Assembly: GCA_002762985.1 (NCBI GenBank)
Contig: PCXZ01000034.1
Coordinates: 8,431-72,430, forward strand
Direction of reading: 5' to 3'
From: Candidatus Woesearchaeota archaeon CG10_big_fil_rev_8_21_14_0_10_44_13
GTDB taxonomy: Archaea; Nanobdellota; Nanobdellia; Woesearchaeales; UBA12501
DNA: 64,000 nucleotides
Position numbers and translations under genes: made by a program. Below, piece after piece: positions 11,163-50,336 of the stretch. Each line of letters starts with the position of its first letter. The first letter of the stretch is position 1. The notes beneath the pieces were generated by a model that did not search any database, was not told the DNA's origin, and saw only the letters and a program-made list of their open reading frames with translations.

Positions 11163-11166
11163 TCGA

Positions 11167-15799: not shown

Positions 15800-15837
15800 A
15801 TTTTCATATAAGAATAATTGAAAAAGAGAAAGCAAAA

Positions 15838-16435: not shown

Positions 16436-19400
16436 GTGGATTTAGATATAAGGGGCTTTTGCCCTGGGAAGAGCAAGAAAGCTCAGCTTGCAGCTTTCAT
16501 CATAATAGGGATTCTCGTGCTGGCCATGGCCGGTGCCATACTCTATTTAGTCACTTCTGCGAAAAAGACAGAGGCAGAGCTGATTGTCGAGAAAGGCATG
16601 GAGGTGAGCCTTGACGAGACGAAGATAAGGGAATACATTACCGCGTGCATACAGAAAGAAGGCAGGGGCCTGGTCGACAAGATAGGGCTGCAGGGCGGAA
16701 CACTGAACTTGGACCAGTTCAGGTATTATTTCAATATGAAATATAATTATCATTGTTATGCCCAAGATGGTTTCGTCTGTGTTAACAGGCTTGTGACAAG
16801 GAATTCCATGGCCCAGGAGCTAAATGCAGCATTGAAGAACAGCCTCAAGAAATGCGTGAATTTCGAGAATTTCAGGAAACAGGGATATGATGTGAAAGAG
16901 CAGGACATGGATGTCAAGACAATTGTAGGGGTGGATGATGTTGATTTTGAGGTGATATATCCCATAACAATCTCCAAGGACAACAATGAGGTCATCCTGA
17001 AAGATTTCAGCGAAAAAGTGGATTCAAGGCTCGGCTTGATGTATGACCTGGCTGTAAAAATAGTCTACCATCACTCTATGGGCGGGGAATTTGACGAGGA
17101 CAGATGGATGCTTGAACATGGCCAGATAAGCATCTCCAAACACAAGCCCTATCCTGACATCATCTATTCGCTGAGCATCAGGGATGCTGCAACCAAAAAA
17201 GAGGAATCCTTCAATTTCGCAATCAAGGGCAGATACTCAATCTATGAGATAGGGCAGCCCACAAAAACCCTTGTAAGCAAAGGATATTGCAGGACAAAGG
17301 ACAATAACTGCTATGTCAATGTAGATCAGGGAGACTGCGCAAAATCATTAGGAGAATGGAGCAATGCCCCTTTCCAGGACGCCCAATGCAGAGGCATGGG
17401 CACCATGCCAGAGCCGGAATGCAAAGGCGATGAATGCAAGAATTGCGGGAAAAGGGAGAACGGCGAATCATGGTGCGAATATGAAGGCATTGTGAGCCCC
17501 GGCTTCTCATTGGTCGGGTCGAGGCATTACAAGGGAAGCTGCATAAACGGCAAGATCTATTACACAGAATGCAGGGATTACCGTGAGGAGATATGCCTGG
17601 AGAACACAGACATAGATGTGCCTAAGGCAGTATGCAGGCCTAACAGATGGCAGGACTGCGCAGAGCAGGGGAATGAGGAGGATTGCATGGACAATTCTGC
17701 AAGGGACTGCTGGTGGTCTGGCTGGCTTGAACTCAACAGGCAGGGCAAGTGCCTGCCTTACATCCCCCCTGGATTTGCGCATTGGCAGCAGAACGGCCAG
17801 GAAGTTTGCGCCATGGCGAATGAGCAGTATGACTGCGGCTATTATACCTGCGGCAAATCATGGGTCGATTCGAGCGCAATATACTGCTACAATATGGGTG
17901 ACTGCGGGAATTACAGGAACACAGAAGATGAGATAACAAAACAGGGATTCTTCAATTTCGACAGCACGCCTTCAGATTATGTCTACCTGACAGATGATCA
18001 GCTGAAAACAGAGATGAAGCCAAAGCTTAAGATGGAAGCGGCGTATGCCCCTGTGCTTGACGGAAAAGAGTATGAAAACCCCCATGGAACAATAAACGAA
18101 TTGATCAATAATGAAGTGAGGTATTTTGATGAGGTTTCAAACTGGAGATTCGAGGATTTCAGGACTAATTACCTGCTTACTGGAAAGATTTACATCCATG
18201 TCCTGCAGACAGCATTGTGCATGCCGTGGCAGGCGCCATACAAAGGCGATGACTGCAAGGAATGCGGCAGCCTGAACAGGCCCTGCACAGAATACAAATG
18301 CAGGAGTTTGGGGCAGACATGCACTTATGAGGAAGTCAATGGAATAGGCTTCTGCTATGATTATTCTGAGAAGGATGATATCCCTCCTAAGATTTTCTTT
18401 GATGGTGTTGTGTTCGGTGATGTGAAGATAGAGAGGGATGTTTTCGGAAAAACAGTTGGTTACAAGTTCAGCAAGCCGCTTGAGCCGAACACAATTGTGG
18501 TATTCTCGATAAATGCGACAGAACCTGTGAAATGCAAAGTAACGTCATTGCCGCAGCCTGAATTCGACCAGATACCCCTTCCAGCGCCCGGCACATTCCA
18601 GGATTATTACACTTTTGTTGATATTGTGCCTAAGGCCCCTGATTTCAGGATAGGCCTGATGAAGTCTTTAGGGGTGAATAACTTCCTTGAGCTCGGCACA
18701 TTTGAAACATACGACGATAAGTTCAAAAAGATAATCTATGATGCCAGGAAATTCGTCAAGGAATTCAAAGGGGGCATGAACAAGGAATTTGCAGAGCAGA
18801 ACATACAGAGGCTTGAGAATATGTGGAATGATGACATCGCACCCAACATAAAGAAAGCCTTTGAAAACCTGGGCGATACACTGAGGGATGTGGCAGTGCA
18901 GACAGAGCAGGGCAACAAGCTTGTTTTCTTCAAATGCATAGACAAGGCAGGGAATGAGAACACTGAAGACCTGTTCATAAAATACAGGATAGGGAAGGAT
19001 GAAAGCGCCCCTGTACTGATGGCTGCATTGCCTGTCAACAACACGAACATAAGCAGTTTTGGAAATCTTTCGCTCTATACGAATGAGCCTGCGAACTGCA
19101 GGTTTGCAGGAAGCGACATGCCTTATGACTCCATGCCCTTGAAGACAGAGACAGAATGCACTCTGCCTCTGATGATTGGAGCATTTAAGCTCTATGAATG
19201 CACACCAAGGGATATCAATGCTTCAAGCGACATAAGAACAAACATATATGTCAGGTGCAAGGATAATCCATTAAAAGTCGAAAGGTACATATTCAATCTC
19301 ACGAAAGGCGATGCCCTCATTCATCTTTTCCCTGAAAATGCCATGACAATAGACCTCAGGGAGAATGACAGGATAATAAACCTCACAATGGAGTTCGAAC

Positions 19401-19702
19401 AATACTTCACATTCCCCAAGGTGAAAGATATAATGGTGAATGCGGATGAGTATGAGATGATAATACAGTCCATAAGGGATGATATTGACTGCGGGTTCTC
19501 GGAAACGCCGGGATTGAGCGTCAGCCAGATGGTACCCATGGCCTGTGAAAAAGGCGGCCTTGAAGGCACATACCAGTGCAGGCATAAGGTCAATGTCCAG
19601 AATAACATGCTCTTTGAGATAGCATGCAGAGGCAGATTCCAGGAAGAGAAAAGGAACACAGCAAAAGAGAGCGCAGTATTGAGCTATCTAAACCTTCCTT
19701 GA
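16436..19702 (+). CDS. giant Cys-rich secreted protein, paralog A (1088 aa), with a class-III/type-IV-pilin-like signal peptide
   Basis: N-terminal ...KSKKAQLAAFIIIGILVLAMAG. Paralogous to 26540..30277 through shared blocks (RHYKGSCINGKIYYTECRDYREEICLE, VCRPNRWQDC, CTEYKCRSLGQTCTYEEVNGIGFCY, CIDKAGNENTEDL). It has more than 60 cysteines. Confidence 0.7.
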   Translation: MDLDIRGFCPGKSKKAQLAAFIIIGILVLAMAGAILYLVTSAKKTEAELIVEKGMEVSLDETKIREYITACIQKEGRGLVDKIGLQGGTLNLDQFRYYFNMKYNYHCYAQDGFVCVNRLVTRNSMAQELNAALKNSLKKCVNFENFRKQGYDVKEQDMDVKTIVGVDDVDFEVIYPITISKDNNEVILKDFSEKVDSRLGLMYDLAVKIVYHHSMGGEFDEDRWMLEHGQISISKHKPYPDIIYSLSIRDAATKKEESFNFAIKGRYSIYEIGQPTKTLVSKGYCRTKDNNCYVNVDQGDCAKSLGEWSNAPFQDAQCRGMGTMPEPECKGDECKNCGKRENGESWCEYEGIVSPGFSLVGSRHYKGSCINGKIYYTECRDYREEICLENTDIDVPKAVCRPNRWQDCAEQGNEEDCMDNSARDCWWSGWLELNRQGKCLPYIPPGFAHWQQNGQEVCAMANEQYDCGYYTCGKSWVDSSAIYCYNMGDCGNYRNTEDEITKQGFFNFDSTPSDYVYLTDDQLKTEMKPKLKMEAAYAPVLDGKEYENPHGTINELINNEVRYFDEVSNWRFEDFRTNYLLTGKIYIHVLQTALCMPWQAPYKGDDCKECGSLNRPCTEYKCRSLGQTCTYEEVNGIGFCYDYSEKDDIPPKIFFDGVVFGDVKIERDVFGKTVGYKFSKPLEPNTIVVFSINATEPVKCKVTSLPQPEFDQIPLPAPGTFQDYYTFVDIVPKAPDFRIGLMKSLGVNNFLELGTFETYDDKFKKIIYDARKFVKEFKGGMNKEFAEQNIQRLENMWNDDIAPNIKKAFENLGDTLRDVAVQTEQGNKLVFFKCIDKAGNENTEDLFIKYRIGKDESAPVLMAALPVNNTNISSFGNLSLYTNEPANCRFAGSDMPYDSMPLKTETECTLPLMIGAFKLYECTPRDINASSDIRTNIYVRCKDNPLKVERYIFNLTKGDALIHLFPENAMTIDLRENDRIINLTMEFEQYFTFPKVKDIMVNADEYEMIIQSIRDDIDCGFSETPGLSVSQMVPMACEKGGLEGTYQCRHKVNVQNNMLFEIACRGRFQEEKRNTAKESAVLSYLNLP

Positions 19703-22204: not shown

Positions 22205-22287
22205 TCAGGGCATTAAACGAACATTGTTTATATATTTTTTTGTTGAAAATTGATAATATTAATAAAACAGGGAGGATATCCCAGGAT

Positions 22288-23244
22288 ATGATCCCTTACG
22301 AAATCCACAAGATACTCTTCAAGATAGGGGACAGATTCGCGATCTTCACATGGGGTGTGATGTTCGCAATCGCCTGGATCTTCGCAGGCTATTTCATATA
22401 TATGAATGCGAAGAGCAATAAGGATGTGGATATTAACAAGGCGATGCAGTTCCTGCTTGCAACTTTTGTCGGCGTCCTCTTCGGCTCAAGGCTTTTCCAT
22501 TACTTCGGCCCATGGGGCTATGGAAGCTTCTATGAACGGATAAAACTCATGTTCTCGCCGAAAGGGGGCTGGGTCGCTTACGGAGGGATAATCTTCGGGT
22601 TGGTCTTTTCATATGCGTACTCAAAGATGAAGAAGATAAATTTCCTGAGATACTGCGATATCCTTGCACCGGCGATACCTTTGGGCCTTTTCATGGGCAG
22701 ATTCGGCTGTTTCCTTGCGGGCTGCTGTTTCGGCGCAGAAACCAATGTCCTGTGGGCGATCGAAAGATTCGGGACAACCATCCATCCATCGCAGCTTTAT
22801 GCTGCATTTGCAGAGCTCATCGTCTTCGTTATTATGCTGGAATTGGCCAGGAGGCACAAGGCAGAGAGGAGATATGACGGATATCTGGTCTTCTCGGCGA
22901 TATTGCTCTACTCCATAGCAAGATTCATGACTGAATTCTTCAGGGGGGATTATGGGATTAATGTCTATCATTTCGGATTCACGTTCTCCCAGCTCATATC
23001 GATCATATTGGTCATCTTTTTCGGGACGATGATGCTGCTGAATCAGGGGAAGAGCAGAGGGGCTGTCCCGAAGATAGACAAAGACATGAAATTGAGCTAT
23101 CTGCTCGTCTCCGGCGGAGGCATGCTGAGCATAATCTCGCTGCTGTTCGTCAACATGGACATCGAGATCATGATTGCGCCTTTCGCCTTCGGATTATTGA
23201 TCCTGTTCAGGGGGCTGATGGCCTACACAAGCAGCCATAATTGA
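22288..23244 (+). CDS. prolipoprotein diacylglyceryl transferase (Lgt) family protein, paralog 3
   Basis: Collinear with E. coli Lgt. [13 protein letters not shown] matches [37 protein letters not shown] matches [42 protein letters not shown] matches [24 protein letters not shown] matches IIVEFFRQPD. The start is taken at ATG 22288; the track's TTG start at 22159 reads across a TATA box. Confidence 0.85.
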   Translation: [318 protein letters not shown]

Positions 23245-23313: not shown

Positions 23314-24303
23314 ATGATAGAATATGAGATGCTGAAATATGTCACAATAGGCGGATTAAAGATAGGCTTCTGGTTCACAACACATTATCTCATCGCATGG
23401 CCATTCGCAGCATATTATATCATAAAAGAAACATTAAGGAAAAGAAATTTCGACAAGGGCCTTGATCTTAACAGGATGCTGCAGATGTTCCTCTTGGCTT
23501 TTGTAGGTTCTTTCGTTGGATCAAGGATCTTTGCATTCTATGGTCCCTGGGGCGGAAGTTGTGCAAGCGGGGGGTTTGTAGAAAGGTTCATGCAGATGAT
23601 AAGCCTTGAACAGAAAGGCTGGGTTGCGATAGGGGGGATCATAGGTGGGATCGTCTTCACGTTTGTCTACTCAAAGATCACCAAGTTGAAGTATATGAGA
23701 TATGCGGATATCCTTGCGCCTGCAATAGCTCTCGGATTTTTCATCGCAAGACTGGGATGTTATATCGCCGGCTGCTGTTTCGGCTCCCAGACAGATGTCC
23801 CTTGGGCGATAATAAAAGACAATGTGCCAATACATCCAACACAGCTCTATAACTCCCTGGTAGACCTTGCAATTTTTGTTGTTCTGGTCTGCCTTAGCGA
23901 AAGGAAAGAAAAGAAGAACAGGCAGGATGGCTATGTCTTATCATCGTTCGTGTTCATGTATGCGGTGGGCAGGTTCACGACAGAATTTTTCAGGGGGGAT
24001 TATGACCCTTCAAATTATTTCTTCGGCCTTACGACAACGCAGATAATATGCATTGTATTCTTCCTGATTTCAGCCACATTGATCATAATAAACTCATTGA
24101 AAGAATCCCCGAAAAAGAGGGTAAAGACAGGCTTCCGCATAAGGCCGAAGACCTATGCATTATTGGTTTCAGGAGGCATAATCGCAAACATAGGCGCTTA
24201 TATCATAACCCCTCTGCCTTATCTTGCATTGATAGTCATACCATCGGGCCTTGGAATCTTCTTTTTCGGCCTTACGACAATCTTCTCAAAACCAAAAAAT
24301 TAA
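23314..24303 (+). CDS. prolipoprotein diacylglyceryl transferase (Lgt) family protein, paralog 4
   Basis: [54 protein letters not shown] and [11 protein letters not shown] are the same signature blocks as in paralog 3. Confidence 0.85.
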   Translation: [329 protein letters not shown]

Positions 24304-24321: not shown

Positions 24322-25377
24322 TTGCAGATGCAGATGGCAAAAAAGAAGGCTGAAAAAGAAGCGAAAGCGAATAGGATAAGCAAGACAACGATAATTCTTT
24401 ATGCTGCTGTCATATTGATATCAGTCATTTTTCTCAGCGTGATGAGCGCAGGCCAGTCAAGCGGGGGCGGAGGTGGATGCTGTGACTGCAGCGAATGCAG
24501 GTGCATATGCTGCGAGAGCTGCCTGAATTGCGACAAGGGATGCAGGAAAGATTGCGGTTGTATGTCTGAACAATATGCAGGTGTGGTTGTAGTTGATCCT
24601 TATACAAATGCTGCAATGAATGGCAATGATTATTACTGCAAACGCGGAGGACCGCCGCCAGTGCCTCCTGAGCCGCAATGCGATTGTTATGAAACGCAGC
24701 CATGCCCTCTCATAGAAGGGGTATGCAAGCTTGCAAAGGACAAATGCGTGTATGGGACTGCCGGCGTTGCATACACTTGCGAATGGGAAGGATGCGATGC
24801 TGAAGTTTACGGCCCTCTCTACCAGTTCGACGAGGACAAGTGCGACGGAAATGACAATGACTGCGACGGAGACAAGGACGAAGGATGCGATGAGGACAAG
24901 GATGGTTTCTGCAACAATGATCTCGAGTGCAGCTCTGGAAAATACAACTGCGGAGATTCGGAACCGGGAGTCTCTGTAGGGACAGATGAATGCACAGACT
25001 GCGATGACAGCAATCCTTTGGTTCATCCAAGGGCATCCGAAGTCTGCGACGGAATTGATAATGACTGCGATTATGAGGTTGATGAGGGATGCGAATGCAG
25101 CCCGCTAGGAGCAGAGAAATTATGCGAGAACCAGAAAGGGGTCTGCGCAGGCATGAAAAGGATATGCAAATCATGCACAGACATAGAATGTGATGCTGGC
25201 CAGCACAGCAAATGGATAGGGTGCTCTTACAGCTCATCAAAAGTGGAAGGCTATAAGAAGCCTGAAGGCGATTCATGGTACTGTGCAGACAATCTTGACA
25301 ATGATTGCGACGGAAAGACAGACTGCGAAGACTCCGGATGCTTCCCTTACTGCCAGACGCCTATACCAACTTCTTAA
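24322..25377 (+). CDS. membrane-anchored Cys-rich protein with three 'DNDCDG'-type putative metal-binding repeats
   Basis: A TM helix is followed by GGGGGCCDCSECRCICCESCLNCDKGC. The repeats are KCDGNDNDCDGDKDEGCDEDKDGFC, VCDGIDNDCDYEVDEGCEC and YCADNLDNDCDGKTDCEDSGC. Confidence 0.6.
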   Translation: MQMQMAKKKAEKEAKANRISKTTIILYAAVILISVIFLSVMSAGQSSGGGGGCCDCSECRCICCESCLNCDKGCRKDCGCMSEQYAGVVVVDPYTNAAMNGNDYYCKRGGPPPVPPEPQCDCYETQPCPLIEGVCKLAKDKCVYGTAGVAYTCEWEGCDAEVYGPLYQFDEDKCDGNDNDCDGDKDEGCDEDKDGFCNNDLECSSGKYNCGDSEPGVSVGTDECTDCDDSNPLVHPRASEVCDGIDNDCDYEVDEGCECSPLGAEKLCENQKGVCAGMKRICKSCTDIECDAGQHSKWIGCSYSSSKVEGYKKPEGDSWYCADNLDNDCDGKTDCEDSGCFPYCQTPIPTS

Positions 25378-25526: not shown

Positions 25527-26462
25527 GTGCAGTACATGAACCAGCAGCTTGTGAGTTACATACAGCAGCAGCTAAGAAGCGGCTATGACTTAAACTCAAT
25601 CAAAAGCTTTCTCATCCAACAGGGCTATAATGTGAAGGATGTTGAAGAATCTGTGTCCTTTGTGAACCAGCAGAGGCTTTCTTCCCTTGTCGATTATATA
25701 AGGTCCTCATTGGGCAGAGGCATTGATCCTGACACATTAAGGGCTCAATTATCCTCCTCAGGGTATCCTATGCCTGACATAAATGAAGCATTGTCGAAGG
25801 CGACGAAAAGAGGCTCGAAATTCCCCTCATCAGCAGTTCTCATAATTCTTGTAGCATTGGTTATATTTGGGCCAGGGTTGTTCTATTTCTGGCCTTCCAG
25901 CAAGGCTGGAGGAACAACCGGCCCGGATATAACCGAAACAGGGACTGGCGCAGAAGACCAAGGCATAGCATTCGAAAAAAATCCGACAGTGAGCGCTGAA
26001 ACACCCCCTCCTCAGGAAGAGATAGGACAAGAGGCAGTGCGGGATACAGGAACGGCAGAAGAAGAGGATTTCCAGATTCCTCCTGCAGCAGAGCAGCCCT
26101 CCGCAGAACAGGTTGATTTCGCCTCTGAAACCTCTGATTTCGAAAGCCTAATGGACCGGGCATCGAAAGAGACAGATGCTGAAAGGGCGATGGACATCTG
26201 CAGCAAGGCCGAGAATTCCATGTACAAGGATGCATGCTATGACCAATTGTCAAAATCATTCGATAATTCAGCGATATGCGCAAAGATAGAGGATGAGGAG
26301 ATAAGGGACCAGTGCTATCTCAGGGTTGTGCTCAAGAACAAGGATTACAGCCTATGCGAGAACATCGTCGATTCAAACCTTTACAACTCATGCCTGTCAA
26401 TGCAGAAAACCCCTCCTGCAGAGAACATGACCCTTGATGACCTTGGTGAGATGGGCGTTTAG
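25527..26462 (+). CDS. hypothetical membrane protein: two ~35-aa N-terminal repeats, one TM, an acidic low-complexity linker, and a C-terminal Cys-containing domain
   Basis: The internal repeat is QQQLRSGYDLNSIKSFLIQQGY / IRSSLGRGIDPDTLRAQLSSSGYPM. The TM is AVLIILVALVIFGPGLFYFW. A E/T/G-rich segment follows, then a C-terminal 6-Cys region. Confidence 0.4.
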   Translation: MQYMNQQLVSYIQQQLRSGYDLNSIKSFLIQQGYNVKDVEESVSFVNQQRLSSLVDYIRSSLGRGIDPDTLRAQLSSSGYPMPDINEALSKATKRGSKFPSSAVLIILVALVIFGPGLFYFWPSSKAGGTTGPDITETGTGAEDQGIAFEKNPTVSAETPPPQEEIGQEAVRDTGTAEEEDFQIPPAAEQPSAEQVDFASETSDFESLMDRASKETDAERAMDICSKAENSMYKDACYDQLSKSFDNSAICAKIEDEEIRDQCYLRVVLKNKDYSLCENIVDSNLYNSCLSMQKTPPAENMTLDDLGEMGV

Positions 26463-26539
26463 ACAGGTACATGATTATAGATAATCATATCGCAACCGGA
26501 ATATCACGATCAAAACACAATCAAAAAAGAGCAGATAAG

Positions 26540-29500
26540 ATGAACGGAAAAAAGAGGTGCAAGAAAGGCCAGATGGCTGCATTTGTCCTTATAGGGCTTA
26601 TCCTGCTGATAGGCTCTGCTGCGCTCACTTATGTTCTTTATGTTGCAAAAAAAGCCCCAAGCGATCAGTATTTCCTCGAGCAGCTGCCGGAATCCCTTGA
26701 CAAGACTTCCCTTGATACATTGATGAGATCGTGCATAAAAAAAGTCTCTGATCCTGAGCTTATCAGGATCGCCAAGTACGGCGGGACCATAAGTCCGAAA
26801 GTTAATGAATACCGGACCTATAACAAGACAAGATACAGGTATCTTTGCGACCAGAAGCCTGGCTATACTGAATGCGTGAACAAGATACTCACAAGGGAAA
26901 GCATGCAGGAAGAGCTTCAGGACAAGATAACTGTCGAGGTCGCAGCATGCATGAGTCCGGCGCTGAAATTCTATGAGGACAGGGGATATGAGATAAAATC
27001 AAGCCAGCCTAGCACAAAGGTGATAATAGCCCCTGATGATGTCAACGTCATAGTCAATTATCCTCTTGTCGTCTCAAAAGATGCCACAAAGATAAACACG
27101 ATGGATTATTCTGTGCAGTTCGATTATCCTCTCGGCAAATTGTATGACCTTGCCATGGAGATACTGAACAGCGAGAACAGCGCGGGATATTTCAACCAGG
27201 AAGGATGGATGTTCAACCACAGCATAGAGGTGTTGATACAGAAGCACAGGCCTTATCCTGATGTGACCTATAAGCTGAGCAAGTATGACTGGGAGAAGAA
27301 AGAGCATTATGTCTTCAATTTCGCGCTGCAGGGATATGACAGGCTGCCTGAGCTTGCTGGCCTCGGGTCTTTAGGGTCCAGCGGGCAGATGATAGCATCT
27401 CCTGCTGCTGCCAGATCAAATGCTTATGACCAGAACATGGGATGCTGCAACAACAAGAAAGACGGGAATTGTTTTGAGAATGCAGACAAGAGCTCATGCA
27501 TGAACAACGGCCTTGAATTCAGGACAGGGACATGCGCGCAGAGCGGATTCACGTGCAAGCCCATATCAGAGGATAAGTTCGACAACAGGACAGGGCTCTG
27601 CTATGGCAGGAGATGCAATGCGTGCATGAACGGCACATATGAGTATGGGGACAATGTGAACGATCCTTCCACTTACAGCGGCCCTGCAAAGATGAACGGC
27701 GAGTCCTGGTGCTCGTATGAAGGGCCGAGCGGCCAGGGCCTTGATGCAGTGGGCTCAAGGCATTACAAGCAGATCTGCGTAGACGGGTCAATGCTCGTAG
27801 AGGAATGCGGCGATTACAGGACAGACATCTGTGTTGAACAGGCAGAGACCATAAACGGAAGGCAGATGACAAGGGCTGTCTGCAGGCCGAACAGGTGGCA
27901 GGACTGCCATCTCTTCGGGAGCAACCAGGCAGAATGCACAGACACAGGCAAGAGAGACTGCTATTGGAATGTATTCCAGGATAATTTCCTATTGGGGAAA
28001 CCTCGCGATCAGAGCGAACCAGGCACAGTCACTTCATATGAGGAGAGGCATTGCGCGCCTCAAGTCCCGCCCGGATTGAGATTCTGGAATACTTTGGAAG
28101 GGATGCAGGTCTGCGGATGGGCGAACAATTATTATGAATGCGCTGCTCCGGGATGCTTCCAGGAATGGACCGAGTTCGATGCCATCTACTGCGCAATGCA
28201 GGGAGACTGCGGCATCTACAGGAATTACCTCGGAAAGCTGCCTGAGCTCTCATTGAACAACCTATTCCCTGGAGCAGGGCAATTGCCCGGCGTAGGCACA
28301 AGCTCTATGGGCGGAGGATTCGTGAGCGCGCCGAACCTCATCAATAACCAGATATACGAGCTAGTCCTCCCCAATGCGCAGAATTTCGCGCTTAAGACGT
28401 ACCAAAAGGCGGGAAAGCTGCCATCATATCCTAAAGAGTGGTACCCGAAAACAGTCACTCCTGACATGTTCATACATAACTCCCCGAATGATTATTCCAT
28501 GCTTGGCATCATGAGCTTCTTCCAGAGGTTCGTCGATTGGGGCATGGACAAGCTCAACAATATCGAGGATGACATATGGGACCTCATAGTCCATGGTGAA
28601 TCCATGGAATGGACGGCTCTTGGCGTGAGCATGTGCAATGTCTGGACTCCGAGCACTTCAGCGATCGACTGCGAGAAATGCAACGGCAATCCTTACAGGC
28701 CATGCACGGAATACAAATGCAGGAGCCTTGGCATGTACTGCAATTATGAGGAGATAGACGGAGTGGGCAAATGCTCTTCATATGAGACGTCCACTATAGG
28801 AAAGCCTGTTGTGCAGTTCGACGGCCAGATAACGCCTGGCTACACTACCAAAGGATCGACATTGGCTTCTTCAGATACTGCTTATGTGGGAAAAGAGATA
28901 ATCGAAGCATTGAAGACAGATTATACATTCCAGATAAAGACGAACAGGGAAACCCAATGCATGCTCACTGTAGTGCCCGGAGCATCGTTCGGAATGAACC
29001 CTCCTTTCCCAGGGACAGCGACAGACTACAGCTTCAGGACAAAGCATAATCTCACAATACCTTATACGACTGCTGACGGGCTCTCTGTGATGCTATTGCC
29101 TCTCCAGCTGATGAGCATGATCAGTTTCAATCCTGACCAGATCTGGGCGATATTCAATAACATGGCGAACAGGATAATAACTTATATGGAAGACCTGACT
29201 GATGACTGCAATGACTGCAATGACTGGGATCCGAGCACTGGTTGCGGTAACATCGGCCTTATGGCCCTGAGCAATGATGACTGCGATGAGATGGAAGACA
29301 AGACTGACCAGATCAAGAGCATGTTCTCGCAGATAACTGATTTCTGGCAGAATACAGTAAAGCCGGAAGTGGAGAAGTGGCTGAACACGGCGCAGAAGAA
29401 TGCCATCGATGAGGTATTGAATTATGCCGTTGCCCAGCACAAATACCATGCGTTCGTGAAATGCAGGGACAGGGGGGGGAATGAGAATGAAGTAGACCTT

Positions 29501-30277
29501 GATTTCATAAGGTTCAAGATCAGCCCCAATCCATTGGCTGCTGCACAGGTCCCGGACGGGCCTCCTATTGTAAGGGCGATCGAGCCTCAGAACTGGACAG
29601 AGCAGAGCCCTGATGAAGCAGGCAGGAAAGAGGTCTATGTTTACCTTAATCAACTGTCTGAATGCGCTTATGGCACATCAGACCAGGAATTCATTTACAT
29701 GAATAACAAGTTCCAGTGCCCGAAATCAACATATTACGGCGGCCTTGCAGGAGGATATGTCTGCAATTCAAGCAGACCTTTCGATGAATTGAAGAACCCT
29801 GGCGCGCCGATATACATCAAATGCATAGACCATCCTGAACATTATGAGACATTCAGCTTCAGGCTTGAGCAGGGGACAGAATACGCAGGACCGCAGAGAT
29901 CCGAATGGATAAAGCCAATCACAGAAGGCGAACCAGGCACAGTCATAATAAAGGACCCTAAAACGATAAACCAGAGCATGGAGAAGATAACCGTACCGAG
30001 CATGAGCGTGAAATTCTTCATTGAATTCAAGAGGCAGGAGAACGACAATGAGAAGGCTCTTGAATGCAGATATGCGCCTACGCAGGCAGGGGCCTCTTCA
30101 GGCACGACATTCGTCGATCCCAAGAGCGGAGGCACGCAATGCGACAACTGCACAGCTCTGCTGACTGCGACAGGCACGGACTATTATGTATGGTGCCATT
30201 TCAAGACAGAGCAGAGGAACGCAGGCCAGGCATACCAGTATGTGCTGCAGGAAGCCGCTGCTGAAGCCACGACATGA
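26540..30277 (+). CDS. giant Cys-rich secreted protein, paralog B (~1245 aa from ATG 26540), with a class-III/type-IV-pilin-like signal peptide
   Basis: N-terminal MNGKKRCKKGQMAAFVLIGLILLIGSAALTY. It shares the same conserved blocks as paralog A (RHYKQICVDG...CGDYRTDICVEQ, VCRPNRWQDC, CTEYKCRSLGMYCNYEEIDGVGKCS, CRDRGGNENEVDL). Confidence 0.7.
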   Translation: MNGKKRCKKGQMAAFVLIGLILLIGSAALTYVLYVAKKAPSDQYFLEQLPESLDKTSLDTLMRSCIKKVSDPELIRIAKYGGTISPKVNEYRTYNKTRYRYLCDQKPGYTECVNKILTRESMQEELQDKITVEVAACMSPALKFYEDRGYEIKSSQPSTKVIIAPDDVNVIVNYPLVVSKDATKINTMDYSVQFDYPLGKLYDLAMEILNSENSAGYFNQEGWMFNHSIEVLIQKHRPYPDVTYKLSKYDWEKKEHYVFNFALQGYDRLPELAGLGSLGSSGQMIASPAAARSNAYDQNMGCCNNKKDGNCFENADKSSCMNNGLEFRTGTCAQSGFTCKPISEDKFDNRTGLCYGRRCNACMNGTYEYGDNVNDPSTYSGPAKMNGESWCSYEGPSGQGLDAVGSRHYKQICVDGSMLVEECGDYRTDICVEQAETINGRQMTRAVCRPNRWQDCHLFGSNQAECTDTGKRDCYWNVFQDNFLLGKPRDQSEPGTVTSYEERHCAPQVPPGLRFWNTLEGMQVCGWANNYYECAAPGCFQEWTEFDAIYCAMQGDCGIYRNYLGKLPELSLNNLFPGAGQLPGVGTSSMGGGFVSAPNLINNQIYELVLPNAQNFALKTYQKAGKLPSYPKEWYPKTVTPDMFIHNSPNDYSMLGIMSFFQRFVDWGMDKLNNIEDDIWDLIVHGESMEWTALGVSMCNVWTPSTSAIDCEKCNGNPYRPCTEYKCRSLGMYCNYEEIDGVGKCSSYETSTIGKPVVQFDGQITPGYTTKGSTLASSDTAYVGKEIIEALKTDYTFQIKTNRETQCMLTVVPGASFGMNPPFPGTATDYSFRTKHNLTIPYTTADGLSVMLLPLQLMSMISFNPDQIWAIFNNMANRIITYMEDLTDDCNDCNDWDPSTGCGNIGLMALSNDDCDEMEDKTDQIKSMFSQITDFWQNTVKPEVEKWLNTAQKNAIDEVLNYAVAQHKYHAFVKCRDRGGNENEVDLDFIRFKISPNPLAAAQVPDGPPIVRAIEPQNWTEQSPDEAGRKEVYVYLNQLSECAYGTSDQEFIYMNNKFQCPKSTYYGGLAGGYVCNSSRPFDELKNPGAPIYIKCIDHPEHYETFSFRLEQGTEYAGPQRSEWIKPITEGEPGTVIIKDPKTINQSMEKITVPSMSVKFFIEFKRQENDNEKALECRYAPTQAGASSGTTFVDPKSGGTQCDNCTALLTATGTDYYVWCHFKTEQRNAGQAYQYVLQEAAAEATT

Positions 30278-42777: not shown

Positions 42778-43065
42778 TCAAAGTTTAAGCGCTTTTTTCA
42801 ATGCATCCTTATCAAACCCTACTATAAATTTCCCATTTATCTCCAGCACCGGGACGCCCATCTGCCCTGATTTCTTGACCATCTCGTCCCTTGCTGCCGC
42901 ATCATCCGCGACATTGAATTCCTGGAAATGTATGTTGTTCTCTTTCAGGAAATTCTTTGCCATTACGCAGTATGGGCATGTGGGCGTTGAGTATACCTTC
43001 ACTATGTTCGCTCCTGTGCTTACTTTCTTCCCGTCCTTGCCTGGATTTCCGCCTGCTTTTGCCAT
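42778..43065 (-). CDS. glutaredoxin/NrdH-like thiol-disulfide oxidoreductase
   Basis: VKVYSTPTCPYCVMAKNFL (CPYC active site) and ...GVPVLEINGKFIVGFD.... The start is taken at MAKAGG (43065); the upstream ORF extension is unlikely. Confidence 0.8.
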   Translation of the reverse strand: MAKAGGNPGKDGKKVSTGANIVKVYSTPTCPYCVMAKNFLKENNIHFQEFNVADDAAARDEMVKKSGQMGVPVLEINGKFIVGFDKDALKKALKL

Positions 43066-43102
43066 ATTATCACCTGCCCAAATTGCTTTGATTTGTATCT
43101 GC

Positions 43103-43930
43103 CTATTTTCCTGCTTTTGAGTGCGCCTGCACGACAAGGATTGAATATATCCTTGCCCAGCTTATCGCCGGCATGAGCATGAATACGCCTATCATGAGGA
43201 ACAGTATGTTGCTTATCCCAATGGAATAATACATTATTAGGTTTATCACGAGGAATATCACTGCGATGATGATGAATGCAGGCAATACATGCATTATATC
43301 CCTTATGCCGATGGAAAATGCCTTTTTTATGTTCGCAAACCCGTATATCCCCGGCAGCATTGAATACGAGATTGCTGCAAGATACAGGAATATGAAGAAC
43401 GCCAATGTCATGAACGTGCTTTGCGCCTGTTCCTGCCCTGAGAGGAAATCCCCTGCAAATGCAATTATATTGTAGATTATCGCAAGAGAGTACCAGTAGA
43501 AGTTCGTCTTATAGAACACATTGAGGTAATCCGAAAATTCGGCCTGTTCCCTTGTTGATGCGATCTTGCATGAATACCACCAGCTGAAGCCCTCGAAAAG
43601 GCAGTACAGGATGTAGATGAGGATTATCATCAATATGACAAGAAGAGCGACTTTGATCAGCATGGGCCTTGCGCTCTCCTGGAATATTATCTCGGAAAGC
43701 GTTGCAGACTGGCTTTCTGTCTTTGTGAGCTCAATGCCCAGATTGAACATCTGGTTGGATACCAATGGGCCTATTAGGCCGATTACGATGAACCCGTACA
43801 GGACGAGGAAGAGTATGTCTGACAGGATAGGGATAGGCAGCTCTATGTATCTCTCTTTGATGCGCCTGAATGATGGTATAAAAGAGTTGAGAGAATAATT
43901 TTGCCTGATTATCTTTTTTATGAATTGCAT
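43103..43930 (-). CDS. hypothetical polytopic membrane protein
   Basis: 275 aa with about 7 predicted TM helices. I recognise no family. Confidence 0.45.
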   Translation of the reverse strand: MQFIKKIIRQNYSLNSFIPSFRRIKERYIELPIPILSDILFLVLYGFIVIGLIGPLVSNQMFNLGIELTKTESQSATLSEIIFQESARPMLIKVALLVILMIILIYILYCLFEGFSWWYSCKIASTREQAEFSDYLNVFYKTNFYWYSLAIIYNIIAFAGDFLSGQEQAQSTFMTLAFFIFLYLAAISYSMLPGIYGFANIKKAFSIGIRDIMHVLPAFIIIAVIFLVINLIMYYSIGISNILFLMIGVFMLMPAISWARIYSILVVQAHSKAGK

Positions 43931-43997: not shown

Positions 43998-45026
43998 TTA
44001 GCCGCAGTTTCCTGCAGCCTGTGCGCCTTCTGTGCTCAACTGCTGTCCGCAGCTTGCCGGCGCTTTGCTGAAAGCAGAGCATATGCTTGTCTTGTAAGCA
44101 TCTGGTGTCCTTCCGCCGCTGTATTCTGCCCCGTTTATGATGAGCATTGGCGAGCCCTGGACGCTGTATTTTGCGTTCAGCTCAACTTCTTTTGCCAATA
44201 ATGCAAGTGCCTCGTCCTTCTGGCATGCGCTTATCTTGGCTGTGTCTATGCCTCTTGCCTTTGCGACAGCTTCCCAGCACTTGTCTACATTCGCTGAGGT
44301 GCATTTTGAGTTCACATCAGAGATGTAATCCCAGAACTTTGCCTTGTCATATTTGTACAGGCATAGTTCCCTGACGCCCTCATTAAGCTCCTGTATGCCG
44401 TGCATTGAGCAATATTTGTTATCTTGGTCCAGGCAATAATCAGCTCCTCCTCCCCTGTAATTTGAATATATCACATAATGCGGCTGTATTTCTACATCAG
44501 ATCCCATCGCCTTGACCACAGGTATGATCCCCTCTTCTGCCTGGTTGCCGTATGGGCAATATGCCATTGTGAAAAGCATCACTTCAGGCTTGTCTGCCTT
44601 TGGTATGTCTGTTGCAGGCTGCTGCTGATCTGCTGTTGATGCTGTTGCAGGCGCTTTCATATTTATCGCCTGCGGGAAAAGTATCGATGCGTCTTTTGTG
44701 ACATAAGACTCAAAGGTCTTTCCCTGTATGTTCAGCGTTATGTTGTATAGGCAGCTCTGTCCCTTGAGATCGCTTATCGAGTCGATCGTCGCGACTGTCT
44801 GGCCCTGCAGGACTGCCTTGTTTATGAAGTCCAGAGTCATATCTGAGACTTTTTTCTTCGGCAGCTCTTTTGCTGATGAGATTGAGAATCCATTGGTTAT
44901 CACGGAAACCACCAGCAGGATCGCCAGAACCACTGCTGCTATCTTCCATGTTTTGTCGCTGCAGCAAACTTTTTGAGATTTGATCTCATGCACTTTTTTT
45001 TCGTGCGTCATGTGTTGTTTAACCAT
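43998..45026 (-). CDS. membrane-anchored DsbA-like thioredoxin-fold protein
   Basis: N-terminal TM (IAAVVLAILLVVSVI). The C-terminal ~200 aa have a DsbA-like pattern (MAYCPYG...; ...GSPMLIINGAEYSGGRT...). The protein is Cys-rich. Confidence 0.5.
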   Translation of the reverse strand: MVKQHMTHEKKVHEIKSQKVCCSDKTWKIAAVVLAILLVVSVITNGFSISSAKELPKKKVSDMTLDFINKAVLQGQTVATIDSISDLKGQSCLYNITLNIQGKTFESYVTKDASILFPQAINMKAPATASTADQQQPATDIPKADKPEVMLFTMAYCPYGNQAEEGIIPVVKAMGSDVEIQPHYVIYSNYRGGGADYCLDQDNKYCSMHGIQELNEGVRELCLYKYDKAKFWDYISDVNSKCTSANVDKCWEAVAKARGIDTAKISACQKDEALALLAKEVELNAKYSVQGSPMLIINGAEYSGGRTPDAYKTSICSAFSKAPASCGQQLSTEGAQAAGNCG

Positions 45027-46078: not shown

Positions 46079-46138
46079 TGATAGGATGATGGATAGACAG
46101 TAAAATTTAAATATGAAAGAGGGTTAAAAGCCATTATA

Positions 46139-47155
46139 ATGCAAAAAAGAGCCCAGCTGAGCGTATTCATAGTGGTTGGATTGATAATCCTTGCCGCAAT
46201 AGGTTTTCTTGTCTATATCAAACAGCCTAAAGCAGAGGAAGTGCCCGCGTCGATGGCTCATGTGAAGATTTTTGTCGACCAATGCGTCAAGAAGGTCGGC
46301 GAGGATGCCTTGGTGAATCTCGGATTAGGCGGTGGATATCTTTATTTTGATAATGTGGAGGCATTGCCGGCCTATTATGGGGATACTGCTTACTGGTACA
46401 TCGCAGGATACAATTTCGCCCCGAAGGATGAGATAGTCAAGGGGCAGATTGACAGGTATATGAAAGAGAACCTCAACTCCTGCCTGAACAATTTTGATGA
46501 TCTGCATGAGAACATAACATTCGGTGAAGTGGAGAGCAGTGCAGACATATTGCCTGACAAGGTCATATTCAATATAGATTTTCCTGTCACATTGAACGAC
46601 AGAGACATACAAAAGACAATATCATCTTTCTCGGGTGACGTGAACATAAGATTAGGCAGGATACTGAGCGCAGGAAGGAAAGTGATTGCCAAGGAGATGG
46701 AAGATCCTCTCAGCATAGACCTTACTTATCTCTCCCAGCTTGATCTGCCTGTGACTGCTTTCCATTATGACGACAGGATACTCATCTATATGATAAGGGA
46801 TTTTGATTATTCTGCAGAGAACCCTTACAGGTTCTTATTCGCGAGCAGGCTTGGCAAGGACAAGGAATTGGGCAACAGGCCTCCTTACTTCACAAACCTG
46901 GAGTTCATACTTGCTGCTGTCGGAGAGGATGTAAGCGCCAGGATAGAAGCGGTCGATCCTGAAGGCGACAAGATTATCTATAATGCAATAACACCCTTGT
47001 TTTTAATCGGGAATGACGGTTCGATAAGGTTTACGCCAATGGAAGATGATGTCGGAGTCTATGATGTTGTTGTAGAGGCAGAAGACAGCAAAGGGGCTGT
47101 GACTGCTGAAACACTGCATGTGGAAATATATCCTGAAGGGACTGCGCTGGAGTGA
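46139..47155 (+). CDS. 338-aa secreted protein with a class-III/pilin-like signal peptide; stand-alone version of the N-terminal domain of the giant Cys-rich proteins
   Basis: N-terminal MQKRAQLSVFIVVGLIILAAIG. The next ~250 aa align with the N-domains of 16436 and 26540 (C[IV]KK...GLGGGYL; D.P..LNDRD...). Confidence 0.6.
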   Translation: MQKRAQLSVFIVVGLIILAAIGFLVYIKQPKAEEVPASMAHVKIFVDQCVKKVGEDALVNLGLGGGYLYFDNVEALPAYYGDTAYWYIAGYNFAPKDEIVKGQIDRYMKENLNSCLNNFDDLHENITFGEVESSADILPDKVIFNIDFPVTLNDRDIQKTISSFSGDVNIRLGRILSAGRKVIAKEMEDPLSIDLTYLSQLDLPVTAFHYDDRILIYMIRDFDYSAENPYRFLFASRLGKDKELGNRPPYFTNLEFILAAVGEDVSARIEAVDPEGDKIIYNAITPLFLIGNDGSIRFTPMEDDVGVYDVVVEAEDSKGAVTAETLHVEIYPEGTALE

Positions 47156-47159
47156 GAAG

Positions 47160-50100
47160 ATGAAAAGACTGATTGTTTTGATGCTGGTCGGGATGATGCT
47201 TGCAGGAGCTGTTATTGCTGCAGAAGAGACAGCACAAGTCGGTTATGAAAAATGCCTTGATGACAAACAGACAAAACCATCAGAGATGGCTAAATGCCTG
47301 GAAGGATTCAAAGACTGGGACAAGGTAAAGCCTGACGACCTTGCTCAGATACTGGCAACTTGCAATGAATGCATCCAGAAGATAGACTGGTCGAAAATAA
47401 AGATCCCGGGCAGTGTTGACCCAAGTACTGCAATAAAAATACTCGGCTATGCCGGTGCGAATGGAAAATTGAACGATCTCGGCCAAGAAAACTTGAAAAT
47501 CGCTTTGGGAAAAATATGCAGGGTATCTGTTGAAAGCATAAACATCCTGGGTAATGTCGGACAGAACATAAGATTCGAGGATCTGCCTCCTACGCTGACA
47601 GTAGGCGACAGATACAATTACCCTCTTCAGGGCGTACAGAGCATAAAGATAGAGGGGGACATTGTTTCTGTTTCTTACAGCGACACGGCAATATTGCCTC
47701 TTAATTTGAAGATAAACGGCCAGGATGTTACATGCGACAAAAGCGCAAAAGACGGCTGCAAAGGCCTTAATGTTTATTGTAAAGGCAACGAATGCAAAAT
47801 CATTGTGGCAAATGGCCCATTGAAGATCGGGGACCTTCCATTGATAGCCAGCGGAGAGATAACCTATAAGCAGGGTGAGGGCGGGAAGATAGAACTCACG
47901 AAAATAAACGCTAAAATAGCTCCTAGAGACTGTAAATACCCAAGTATTTTTAACATGGACGGGAAAAAGATAATCATACCTTATGTAGCACTACCAACAG
48001 AAGCGGAAATCAATCTTGAGCTGACAAAGTGCGGGACAGCAAATAATATCCCCTGCTTAAAGATAAATAAGGCGACAGAAGGAGTTATATTCTTCACCCC
48101 CCAACCCCCTGACCATCTAGGCAGGCTTGTTGCTGGGAAAGGAGGGATAACAAATGGGTTTATTGCATCAGACAGCAGCATCGTTTCAGTCAGCCAGGGA
48201 GACGCAACATATTATGATTACACCATATGCAGTAAAAACCCCGATGAAAAATGTGATTTAAGCAAGGTATTCCCCATCTTCTCAGGCAGATTCACAGTAG
48301 GCTATTCAAACAATAAGCTGAGCAGCGCATTATTGAATGAAGGCAGCACAGCGGTATTCGGGAATGGGTACACAAGAAGCCTTAAAGGCACAAGCTATGT
48401 TGGCTTTGAGGTCCCACAGGGCGTGAATGTGGATACATCTGATGGGATGATGCCGTCTGAATATTCGCAGGCATTCCTTGCGATGAAAAACAAGCTTGAT
48501 CTGCGCCAGAATGCGGTCATACTTCTGCCGACAGGCGCTGTAGGTTTTGCTGCTGATGGAGGCAGCATAGAGGTCGCTGCAAGGATAGGGAAGAAAGATG
48601 AACCCTGGAGACAGGTGGCAATCAATCCAGGTGCCTATGCAGGCACTTTTGACATAGACACAGAGGTCATAGGCATTGAGAGGGTGGATGTCGGCATAGG
48701 TGCATGGAAGCCCGATCTTGCAAGGAAACAGGAAGGAGGAAGATTAGGCTCATTATACCAGTCAAACAGCGCAGAACCGAATATAGGAAAACTCACTTTC
48801 AGCCTGAATCAGGATGGGGGCATAAGCGTAGCTGAGGACAGGAATTCCAACCAGGCAGGCACTTATACAAGAGTAGATGGGATAAAAGGCATCCCGCCCG
48901 GCAAAGGGGATAATGTGGCAAGAGTGGACGGCACTGTCCTGATGATGCCAGGAGGGGTTGTGTTCGGCATGGGCAATCTGGGCAGCGGAGAGGCGAGTGC
49001 CGCATTAAAAAATAAGATAGTTGATTACATGAAACAGAACAAGCTCCCGGATATCGCAAAAACCGCCCTGATATTCGCTCCGATAGACCCGACAATAACT
49101 TCGCAAAAAACATTCGAATGGGTTAGTGCTTTCTCAGGCTGCAAACCTGAAGATAAGTCAGATGCGTGCAATAAGTTCAATGAAGAGATAGGTAAGATTG
49201 TCGCTGATCCGAATGTGTACAGCCTCCCAATACCTTCGCCCGTAAATCCTACAAGAATTTTAGGCACAGGACAGCCTGGTGAAATCGAACCAGGGGCATC
49301 TGGTGTTCCTTTAGGGGATATCCCTCTTAAATTGCAGGAAGCATGCAATTCCCCTAAGACGGCTGCAGAGTGGAAAGTCTGCAGGGAAGCGTGGAATAAA
49401 GGATGGCAGGAGCTTGGGCCAAATGTCATGATGGAATACTGCGCTTATGTCCCCCGCCAGGGAATGAACAGGAATTCTGAGATACAGCAGAACCTATGCC
49501 TGATGGGGATAAACACGGGGACGATCGACGGCTGGTATGGAAGGATGACAAGAACTGGAGTTAGGGAATTCCAGCAGACATTCAATGCTCTGCCTGCTGA
49601 CACAAGGGCAGGCTGCAACTGCGTATTCGGCCAGAGTAGATTGAGAGTTGACGGTGTTTTCGGCGATAATACCCTTTGCGCTTATAATTGCGTAGTGAGC
49701 AGCGGATATTCCGGCAAAGTGCAGAATGCAGTCATAGTCGCAAAGCAGGCGAACAGGCCTGTGGCAACAGAGGACTTCCAGGCTGAGCCGAAGAATACAG
49801 GTGCAGGAGAACCGGCTGGTGTAGCAGCGTCCGTAAAGCCGGCAGAACCTGTTACTCCTGCTACTGCTCCTAAACCTATATGTCCTGCTGCTTGTCCTAG
49901 AAAGGATGAAGTTTGTAATGAAGCAACAGGAATTTGCGGACCCAAATCAGCTGCAATAGTAAGTCCAGTTGCGCCTGTTGCTGCAAAAACACCATCTTTA
50001 CCTGCTCCTCCAACTAATCTCCCAAAAACTGCAGTCCAATATGTATCTGGAGAGGGGAATACCCAGGTTGTGGGGGTTGATATCACTAAATTACCGGATA

Positions 50101-50336
50101 ACCCTAATGTTAAAGGATCGCAAACGCCTGGAAAGGTAACTACGGCTAAAAGCGGCATGCAAGCGATGGTAGCAGCAGCATTATATGGTGATCCAAGAGG
50201 TAAAACCGTGCAATTGCAGGTTATAACTGAAGGAAACAAAGTAAGAGTAGATTGTAACAGATTTGTTAGGCCTGCAGGAGTAACTGATGCAAACTGGTGC
50301 AATTTCCAAAAGACTTATTGTGGAAAATCCTGTTAG
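47160..50336 (+). CDS. 1059-aa secreted protein with a C-terminal peptidoglycan-binding-like (PG_binding_1-type) module and a Pro/Ala linker
   Basis: Signal peptide MKRLIVLMLVGMMLAGAVIAAEE. The module IDGWYGRMTRTGVREFQQTFNALPADT...VDGVFGDNTL fits the [DN]G.[FY]G..T..A[LV]..FQ ... DG..G..T pattern. A PAEPVTPATAPKP linker follows, then a C-terminal domain. Confidence 0.6.
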   Translation: MKRLIVLMLVGMMLAGAVIAAEETAQVGYEKCLDDKQTKPSEMAKCLEGFKDWDKVKPDDLAQILATCNECIQKIDWSKIKIPGSVDPSTAIKILGYAGANGKLNDLGQENLKIALGKICRVSVESINILGNVGQNIRFEDLPPTLTVGDRYNYPLQGVQSIKIEGDIVSVSYSDTAILPLNLKINGQDVTCDKSAKDGCKGLNVYCKGNECKIIVANGPLKIGDLPLIASGEITYKQGEGGKIELTKINAKIAPRDCKYPSIFNMDGKKIIIPYVALPTEAEINLELTKCGTANNIPCLKINKATEGVIFFTPQPPDHLGRLVAGKGGITNGFIASDSSIVSVSQGDATYYDYTICSKNPDEKCDLSKVFPIFSGRFTVGYSNNKLSSALLNEGSTAVFGNGYTRSLKGTSYVGFEVPQGVNVDTSDGMMPSEYSQAFLAMKNKLDLRQNAVILLPTGAVGFAADGGSIEVAARIGKKDEPWRQVAINPGAYAGTFDIDTEVIGIERVDVGIGAWKPDLARKQEGGRLGSLYQSNSAEPNIGKLTFSLNQDGGISVAEDRNSNQAGTYTRVDGIKGIPPGKGDNVARVDGTVLMMPGGVVFGMGNLGSGEASAALKNKIVDYMKQNKLPDIAKTALIFAPIDPTITSQKTFEWVSAFSGCKPEDKSDACNKFNEEIGKIVADPNVYSLPIPSPVNPTRILGTGQPGEIEPGASGVPLGDIPLKLQEACNSPKTAAEWKVCREAWNKGWQELGPNVMMEYCAYVPRQGMNRNSEIQQNLCLMGINTGTIDGWYGRMTRTGVREFQQTFNALPADTRAGCNCVFGQSRLRVDGVFGDNTLCAYNCVVSSGYSGKVQNAVIVAKQANRPVATEDFQAEPKNTGAGEPAGVAASVKPAEPVTPATAPKPICPAACPRKDEVCNEATGICGPKSAAIVSPVAPVAAKTPSLPAPPTNLPKTAVQYVSGEGNTQVVGVDITKLPDNPNVKGSQTPGKVTTAKSGMQAMVAAALYGDPRGKTVQLQVITEGNKVRVDCNRFVRPAGVTDANWCNFQKTYCGKSC

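Follow-up and report, generated by a model that had tools for sequence, protein, structure and literature searches.

A pilin-like gene paired with a gene for a large secreted protein in a Woesearchaeota genome: a possible surface cassette of DPANN archaea

Archaea of the DPANN group are mostly uncultured and are thought to be attached to other cells, and their means of attachment are largely unknown. Here, we analyzed two adjacent genes, designated gene A and gene B, in a 64-kb stretch of DNA from such an archaeon (contig PCXZ01000034.1, positions 8,431 to 72,430; hereafter, the window). Gene A encodes a protein with a pilin-like N-terminal signal, and gene B encodes a large Sec-exported protein without a membrane anchor. 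We propose, with a probability of roughly 45%, that the pair is a surface cassette typical of Woesearchaeota and further DPANN archaea, in which the pilin-like anchor presents the anchorless secreted adhesin.

In a database search, the gene A product was 100% identical to the hypothetical protein COV19_07280 of Candidatus Woesearchaeota archaeon CG10_big_fil_rev_8_21_14_0. The host is a DPANN archaeon (Woesearchaeota), and genes neighboring the pair in the window include those for Nop5, fibrillarin and aminoacyl-tRNA synthetases.

According to the proposed mechanism, a prepilin peptidase would cleave the gene A protein at a site predicted from its sequence. The cleaved protein would then either stay in the membrane via its N-terminal helix or join a type-IV-filament-like structure. 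Its extracellular domains would hold the gene B protein and present it at the cell surface, by analogy with minor pilins and PilY1. The gene B protein, like far larger partners encoded elsewhere, would mediate contact with another cell, here probably one with a peptidoglycan-containing wall. In two fused paralogues of gene A in the window (hereafter, the giants), the same anchor module would carry a large Cys-rich region of its own.

Signals and domains of the two proteins

The features of the gene pair are listed below. The N-domain is the alpha/beta domain that defines the family of the gene A protein; lengths are in amino acids (aa) or nucleotides (nt).

46106..46113 (+): TTTAAATA, possible archaeal TATA box, ~29 nt 5' of the gene A ATG, read from the sequence
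46139..47155 (+): gene A, hypothetical protein COV19_07280, 338 aa; class-III-signal protein with the family N-domain and a cadherin-like domain
46139..46219 (+): class III (prepilin-type) signal of gene A; leader MQKRA (residues 1-5), predicted cleavage between A5 and Q6, hydrophobic helix Q6-I27
46247..46849 (+): family-defining alpha/beta N-domain of gene A, residues ~37-237
46886..47131 (+): C-terminal cadherin-like Ig domain of gene A, residues ~250-331; cadherin-type beta-sandwich fold
47149..47162 (+): A-B junction; GGAG at 47149-47152 (overlapping the end of gene A), TGA at 47153-47155, 4-nt gap, gene B ATG at 47160
47160..50336 (+): gene B, 1058 aa; Sec-exported, Cys-rich (32 Cys), without membrane anchor
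47160..47222 (+): Sec-type signal peptide of gene B, MKRLIVLMLVGMMLAGAVIA, followed by AEE; neither lipobox Cys nor class III motif
47172..48365 (+): N-terminal ~400-aa region of gene B, conserved with the partner at locus L001; two W[DS]K[VI] motifs
49479..49601 (+): PG_binding_1 domain of gene B, residues 774-814; Pfam PF01471, E 1.4e-7, 32 bits versus a 23-bit cut-off
49797..50024 (+): Pro/Ala-rich linker of gene B, residues ~880-955, followed by a ~100-aa Cys-containing C-terminal domain; read from the sequence

The gene A protein starts with MQKRAQLSVFIVVGLIILAAIGFLVYI, i.e., KRAQ followed by a hydrophobic stretch (residues 6-27; hydropathy 1.95 over 19 residues) that is part of a helix (residues 2-27) in the AlphaFold2 model. 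Judged by its sequence, this N-terminus matches the pattern of EppA-type archaeal class III (prepilin-like) signals. In Methanococcus maripaludis, the EppA sites RAQI, KGQV, KGQL and KGQI are proven and Gln is required at +1 (PMC4371748). The motif [KR][KR][GAS]/Q[IVL][TS][IVL]F-III-G, where the slash marks the junction, was found in 144 of the 156 family members analyzed, with the Gln mostly at positions 5-7 (a leader of 4-6 residues). In these 144 proteins, position -3 is Lys or Arg in 123, -2 is Lys or Arg in 139, and -1 is Gly, Ala or Ser in 140; the Gln is fixed in the search motif itself. Q6 of gene A is invariant in three family alignments. Within the window, a six-frame regular-expression scan limited this N-terminal signature to three open reading frames (ORFs), i.e., gene A and the two giants. 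If TTTAAATA is the TATA box of gene A, which is possible, the mRNA would be leaderless or have a short leader.

The closest comparison for this signal is offered by the Epd pilins of M. maripaludis, which are processed by EppA (system 1). These pilins, like the gene A protein, have a short basic leader, Gly or Ala at -1, Gln at +1 and a hydrophobic segment of ~20 residues, and KRAQL of gene A compares with their RAQI and KGQV/L/I. Unlike them, the gene A family has Phe at +5, a ~210-aa alpha/beta head that does not resemble known pilin heads and no adjacent assembly genes, and many of its members are far larger than such pilins. Filament loci of the Epd type (system 1) have been reported in DPANN archaea (bioRxiv 10.64898/2026.04.22.720090).

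The whole gene A protein was modeled by AlphaFold2 with a mean predicted local distance difference test (pLDDT) score of 91. In the model, the N-terminal helix is followed by a break at residues 28-36. Residues 37-237 then fold into an alpha/beta domain, which contains three long helices along with antiparallel sheets, and residues 250-331 form a beta-sandwich, a cadherin-like domain that the sequence-only reading of this DNA had not included. Since this domain dominated the fold search with the whole protein, the N-domain was modeled separately (pLDDT 93.9; predicted template modeling score, pTM, 0.86). Its conserved residues include the invariant C49 and C115, G65-G66, Y85, P149, D221 and F234 in family alignments. 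Because these are structural (two Cys, Gly-Gly, aromatics and Pro), the domain looks like a scaffold and has no catalytic-looking set. No Pfam or NCBIfam model and no PDB sequence match was found for it. In this model, only the signal of gene A is pilin-like, and the head is a predicted new, family-specific domain.

Word-indexed homologue searches gave just 4, 1 and 5 matches, and the size of the family emerged only from an exhaustive search of representatives. When the N-domain profile was compared with 1.84 billion representative proteins, it detected 8,717 clusters (50% identity) at E<=1e-3, 6,347 at E<=1e-10 and 936 at E<=1e-30. The family is found in DPANN archaea; all of it is annotated only as hypothetical and is without a curated model. 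The N-domain can make up a whole protein (~245 aa), be joined to an Ig-like domain (~330 aa, as in gene A) or form the N-terminus of ~950-1350-aa proteins. Among the 156 members, 47 are shorter than 270 aa (domain alone), 63 have 300-400 aa (with the Ig-like domain) and 39 exceed 900 aa (giant-like); a scan of GTDB genomes added a class of 450-800 aa. There are several copies per genome, including three in these 64 kb. These settings support the N-domain as a separable module. The sequence-only reading had suggested a separable pilin-like module; its separability and its pilin-type signal hold up, and the head has no recognizable pilin fold.

A relative of the cadherin-like domain is present elsewhere in the window. 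The protein encoded at 946-2919 (+) has 657 aa, an N-terminal signal-anchor, a C-terminal transmembrane helix and, at residues 55-130, a cadherin-like domain with 29% identity to that of gene A (E 1e-10; common motif LTF.D.T.LFDI...G.I.FTP).

Gene B lies in another frame than gene A, and GGAG is found 7 nt 5' of its ATG at 47160. A start at this codon makes the signal peptide N-terminal. A further in-frame ATG, at 47118, would make gene B overlap gene A and bury the signal peptide of B. Only from that upstream codon do the genes overlap, as had been thought from the sequence alone; from 47160 they are 4 nt apart. Likewise, the earlier description of B as a secreted protein with its own Sec signal peptide is borne out, and its length of 1059 aa is corrected to 1058 aa, as the former figure counts the stop codon.

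The signal peptide (MKRLIVLMLVGMMLAGAVIA, then AEE) is the sole hydrophobic segment of the gene B protein, and the hydropathy scan revealed no C-terminal anchor. The N-terminal region is 30% identical over 428 residues to the 1028-aa partner at L001, the locus with the closest orthologue of gene A (E 3e-19 / 5e-24). PG_binding_1 is the only Pfam match of B; weak matches to the N-terminal domain of SleB are its only PDB sequence matches, and no lytic transglycosylase domain was detected. The similarity of B to the N-terminal domain of giant partners encoded elsewhere is weak (BLAST E 0.07; hhalign probability 51%, E 1.6e-4, 46 columns), and B was not recruited to the family of that domain in four rounds of hidden Markov model (HMM) iteration over 861 ORFs.

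Large murein-directed proteins of the extracellular space (fam00969) are already known from Woesearchaeota and Pacearchaeota (PMC8204110). These proteins resemble B in lineage, in being large and secreted and in having a peptidoglycan-directed domain that suggests bacterial partners. They differ from it in that B has PG_binding_1 and no detected lytic transglycosylase; an upstream pilin-like gene is not mentioned in the passages of that study consulted here. The PG_binding_1 domain of B adds to published hints of an association between some Woesearchaeota and bacteria.

Just upstream of gene A, there are genes for a membrane-anchored DsbA/thioredoxin-like protein (43998-45026, -) and a small glutaredoxin-like CPYC protein (42778-43137, -). 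These neighbors are consistent with extracellular disulfide formation in the Cys-rich B and the giants (3-4% Cys).

Pairing of the genes across DPANN genomes

Metagenomes and genome assemblies yielded seven related A-type loci (L001, L002 and L004-L008). In each of them, as in the window, a gene for a large signal-peptide protein is located directly downstream, with junctions of -4 (overlap) to +36 nt. The partners have 1028, at least 393, at least 164, at least 849, 5289, 9132 and 6975 aa. Two N-domain-only loci are likewise followed by genes for signal-peptide proteins, of 675 and at least 1435 aa.

We further carried out a degenerate DNA scan for KKGQ[IV]T.FIIIG across 185,579 GTDB species genomes. 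It returned 92 loci, all of which belong to Woesearchaeota, Pacearchaeota, Nanoarchaeota or unclassified archaeal metagenome-assembled genomes (MAGs) and are positive with the N-domain HMM. The occurrence of a large signal-peptide-like ORF directly downstream was as follows.

GTDB members <450 aa: 18/21 (86%)
GTDB members 450-800 aa: 27/37 (73%)
GTDB members >=800 aa: 4/9 (44%)
Control genes in the same loci: 56/241 (23%)

The difference between short forms and controls is significant (18/21 versus 56/241, Fisher p = 1.6e-8), and the control rate is itself inflated, because genes upstream of family members score the member itself as a match. Since the 450-800-aa members and some of those of at least 800 aa also have a large secreted partner downstream, the partner is a separate component rather than a detached C-terminus. 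This pairing provides a simple genomic handle on candidate host-contact proteins and a testable model for the retention of anchorless giant proteins on the cell.

The partners are diverse. Those of L002, L004 and L006-L008 share an N-terminal domain of ~300-400 aa (E 4e-31 to 3e-7), and the others are unrelated to each other. At L006 (10670 onward), L007 (5052 onward) and L008 (10996 onward), the partners are encoded by single genes of 5,289, 9,132 and 6,975 codons in DPANN contigs; in these three giant partners, the shared domain follows the signal peptide and has repeated W-x-x-[VI]-P motifs. For the 5,289-aa partner, Pfam matches to HEAT_2 and HD_5 are recorded, plus a faint one to HD. In a subclass of the family with 620-780 aa (L014, L019, L030, L031, L045, L057, L096 and others), the gene is followed by that for a conserved partner of ~1010-1070 aa, whose signal peptide ends ...MP[FV]AFAQELS[IV]QKF.GKD; these appear to be a distinct and well-conserved anchor-partner subfamily. 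Members of the family also occur in many TPA_asm MAGs titled 'uncultured Methanosarcinales archaeon' (e.g., L013, L015, L016, L028 and L031). Such titles are probably mislabeled and are no indication that the family occurs in Methanosarcinales.

Many N-domain genes are directly preceded, often with a 4-nt overlap, by small genes for putative DNA-binding proteins (winged-helix-like, PadR-like or AbrB/SpoVT-like), which suggests that each anchor-partner cassette has its own regulator. They are located at L004 843-1103, L008 9744-10004, L009 9669-9989, L006 9532-9681, L010 9726-9929 and window 15709-16398, and the small proteins of L004 and L008 are 46% identical. The gene at window 15709-16398 encodes an HTH_11 protein and precedes giant 1; nothing comparable is found before gene A.

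The minor-pilin/PilY1 arrangement is known from the fimU-pilVWXY1E genes of Pseudomonas aeruginosa and also from Myxococcus xanthus; it includes four minor pilins and the Sec-exported PilY1, which has a role in adhesion. The A-B pair resembles it in that a pilin-like gene directly precedes a co-oriented gene for a ~1000-aa, Sec-exported, anchorless non-pilin protein. The differences are that B has no similarity to PilY1/PilC, that there is a single pilin-like gene instead of four, that the archaeal host has no outer membrane and that the contact between A and B is hypothetical. The bindosome of Sulfolobus likewise involves large non-pilin proteins with a prepilin-type signal for surface localization, but its subunits are solute-binding, are tied to a dedicated Bas ATPase/platform system and have no homology to the gene A family. 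In Streptococcus sanguinis, the modular type IV pilins PilB and PilC (PMC8179133, PMC9934059) have modules grafted on a pilin-type N-terminus, a likeness shared by the two fused giants and by gene A, whose module is cadherin-like. In contrast to PilB and PilC, the pilin-proximal domain here has no recognizable pilin fold, and the largest functional part is usually encoded by a gene of its own.

In the literature that could be searched, we found no account of the N-domain family or of giant genes paired with it; the incomplete coverage of that literature makes this absence of evidence only.

A broader reading, which we consider tentative and on balance doubtful, is that the N-domain family is a surface-display adaptor specific to DPANN archaea, by which hypervariable Sec-exported proteins for host interaction, large to giant in size (up to >9,000 aa), are attached to the cell or to the tip of a filament. 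The prepilin-processed anchor would usually be encoded just upstream of its cargo in Woesearchaeota, Pacearchaeota and other Nanoarchaeota. If true, display of the sortase, S-layer or PilY1 type would have in this adaptor an archaeal counterpart not described before, and the partner genes would point to the proteins with which uncultured DPANN lineages recognize their hosts.

The fused paralogues and the alternative readings

The two giants encoded in the window are the following.

16436..19702 (+): paralogue 1, fused, 1088 aa; KKAQ class III signal, N-domain and Cys-rich ~830-aa region; no secreted partner gene downstream
26471..30277 (+): paralogue 2, fused, 1268 aa as an ORF; KKGQ signal, N-domain and Cys-rich region

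Paralogue 2 likely starts at ATG 26540, giving MNGKKRCKKGQ... In BLASTP comparisons, the gene A protein was 24% identical to the 1088-aa giant over 257 residues (A 3-237, E 3e-15) and 21% identical to the 1268-aa giant over 267 residues (E 1e-7). The giants are homologous to each other from end to end (E 4e-116), and all three proteins match one N-domain profile. As the alignments of A reach residue 237, the similarity extends ~210 residues beyond the hydrophobic segment and is not confined to the signal peptide. Gene A was thus correctly described from the sequence alone as having KRAQ, a hydrophobic N-terminus and the N-domain of the giants (~235 aa homologous). The KRAQ then ascribed to all three belongs to gene A only, with KKAQ and KKGQ in the giants.

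The same earlier reading regarded A and B as the split version of a family that is also present as fused proteins. The N-domain is indeed present both fused and unfused in one genome, and one explanation would be that A and B arose by gene fission from a fused giant, B being the C-terminal part. Both B and the giants are Cys-rich (3.0% versus 3.9%), and the share of members with a secreted partner drops with length (86% at <450 aa, 73% at 450-800 aa and 44% at >=800 aa), as fission would have it. At the sequence level, however, this idea is contradicted. B has no detectable similarity to the C-terminal ~830-1000 residues of the giants (BLASTP best E 0.8), and a profile of B and its L001 orthologue compared by hhalign with a 32-sequence profile of fused giants gave a probability of 0.15%, so that the suspected remote homology of 47160..50336 to these regions was not detected. 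In addition, the cadherin-like domain of gene A is absent from the giants, B carries a signal peptide of its own, mid-size and large fused members often keep a partner, and the partners elsewhere are Cys-poor and unrelated. We regard fission as quite improbable.

It was also conceivable that a single gene for ~1400 aa appears split because of a frameshift introduced in sequencing or assembly. This notion draws on the proximity of the ORFs and the in-frame ATG at 47118 that overlaps gene A, and on nothing else. The nearest relatives of gene A have 341, 340 and 329 aa (53%, 48% and 27% identity) and stop at the same point, one ending ...EGALE where gene A ends ...EGTALE. They do so in independent assemblies and with different spacers and frames: at L001, the 341-aa gene is followed after 25 nt by that for the 1028-aa signal-peptide protein, and at L002, 5 nt lie between the 329-aa gene and one whose signal-peptide-bearing product has at least 393 aa. 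Moreover, 63 of the 156 family members analyzed are 300-400 aa long, two contigs have records of identical gene products, and B opens with a complete signal peptide behind GGAG, which a fusion would strand internally. A frameshift is therefore extremely improbable, and the division into two genes noted earlier is genuine. From these comparisons, the A/B split is real and ancient, yet it is no fission of the neighboring giants.

Several observations weigh against the proposed cassette. The residue at +5 is Phe in 123 and Tyr in 12 of the 144 motif-matching members (Phe10 in gene A), whereas EppA substrates typically have Glu. No curated class III signal or pilin model of Pfam or NCBIfam matched A or the giants at E<=0.1, nor did any match 50 N-domain members. 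A search among the annotated ORFs of the 64-kb window and in the adjoining upstream 7 kb revealed no filament ATPase, platform protein or prepilin peptidase (A24), and pilus machinery was also not found in the flanks of loci L006-L010. The separate model of the N-domain gave no convincing structural neighbor and no recognizable pilin fold in the fold search. Finally, because the partners are mostly non-homologous to each other, a common binding interface is not evident.

In one alternative, the gene A protein is a plain membrane protein with an uncleaved N-terminal signal-anchor. It would then form a stalk close to the membrane or a component of the envelope, either together with B or by itself, and no type IV filament machinery would be involved. 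This is a serious rival of the filament-type model, although we think it unlikely. The lack of filament genes nearby, the absence of a recognizable pilin fold in the N-domain and the Phe in place of Glu at +5 all speak for it. So does the model, in which a break (residues 28-36) separates the hydrophobic helix from the first helix of the domain, whereas alpha-1 of pilins is continuous. What an uncleaved anchor leaves unexplained is the invariant Gln behind a small and two basic residues, 4-6 residues from the start, in 144 of 156 members, and a conserved junction equal to proven EppA cleavage sites (PMC4371748). Another alternative dispenses with a permanent anchor: A might be a pseudopilin-like export or assembly factor, a piston- or chaperone-like mover of B and of the giant partners. 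The combination of a class III signal with strict operon linkage to Sec-exported cargo recalls the pseudopilins of type II secretion and the Sulfolobus bindosome. However, genes for an ATPase or a platform protein are not linked, a dedicated factor for each cargo that also has an adhesin-type cadherin domain is better suited to display than to export, and the fused forms show that the module can remain on its cargo permanently. We consider such a factor hardly probable, and prefer the two-gene cassette in which A anchors and presents B.

Other genes in the window

Four paralogues of Lgt (PF01790), the bacterial-type prolipoprotein diacylglyceryl transferase, are encoded within 64 kb of this archaeal genome (E 2.5e-21 to 6e-46). 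Three of them cluster between the two giants. Their positions are as follows.

7433-8320 (+): Lgt paralogue
19688-20434 (-): Lgt paralogue
22159-23244 (+): Lgt paralogue
23314-24303 (+): Lgt paralogue

Four copies are unusual for archaea and suggest either bacterial-style lipoprotein modification or an expanded, diverged function.

Directly upstream of giant 2, two genes were found. The product of one (24322-25377, +; 351 aa) has a Cu-binding motif of the MopE type (E 2.6e-13); that of the other (25527-26462, +; 311 aa) has a single transmembrane segment and a Cys-rich C-terminal region.

The 7 kb upstream of the window (L012 1-7657) contain a run of unannotated envelope proteins with no Pfam matches on record. 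They include a protein of at least 1385 aa with many N-glycosylation sequons, a 439-aa protein with a signal peptide and a C-terminal transmembrane helix, and proteins of 76, 215 and 389 aa with N-terminal hydrophobic segments. This region may be a second surface-structure locus.

Positions 8000-12000 of the window form a low-GC island (0.30-0.33 versus ~0.45 elsewhere). Its genes (8329-13616, -) encode three radical SAM proteins (one with SPASM and one B12-binding), a methyltransferase and a GT2 glycosyltransferase, and the island may be a horizontally acquired modification cluster.

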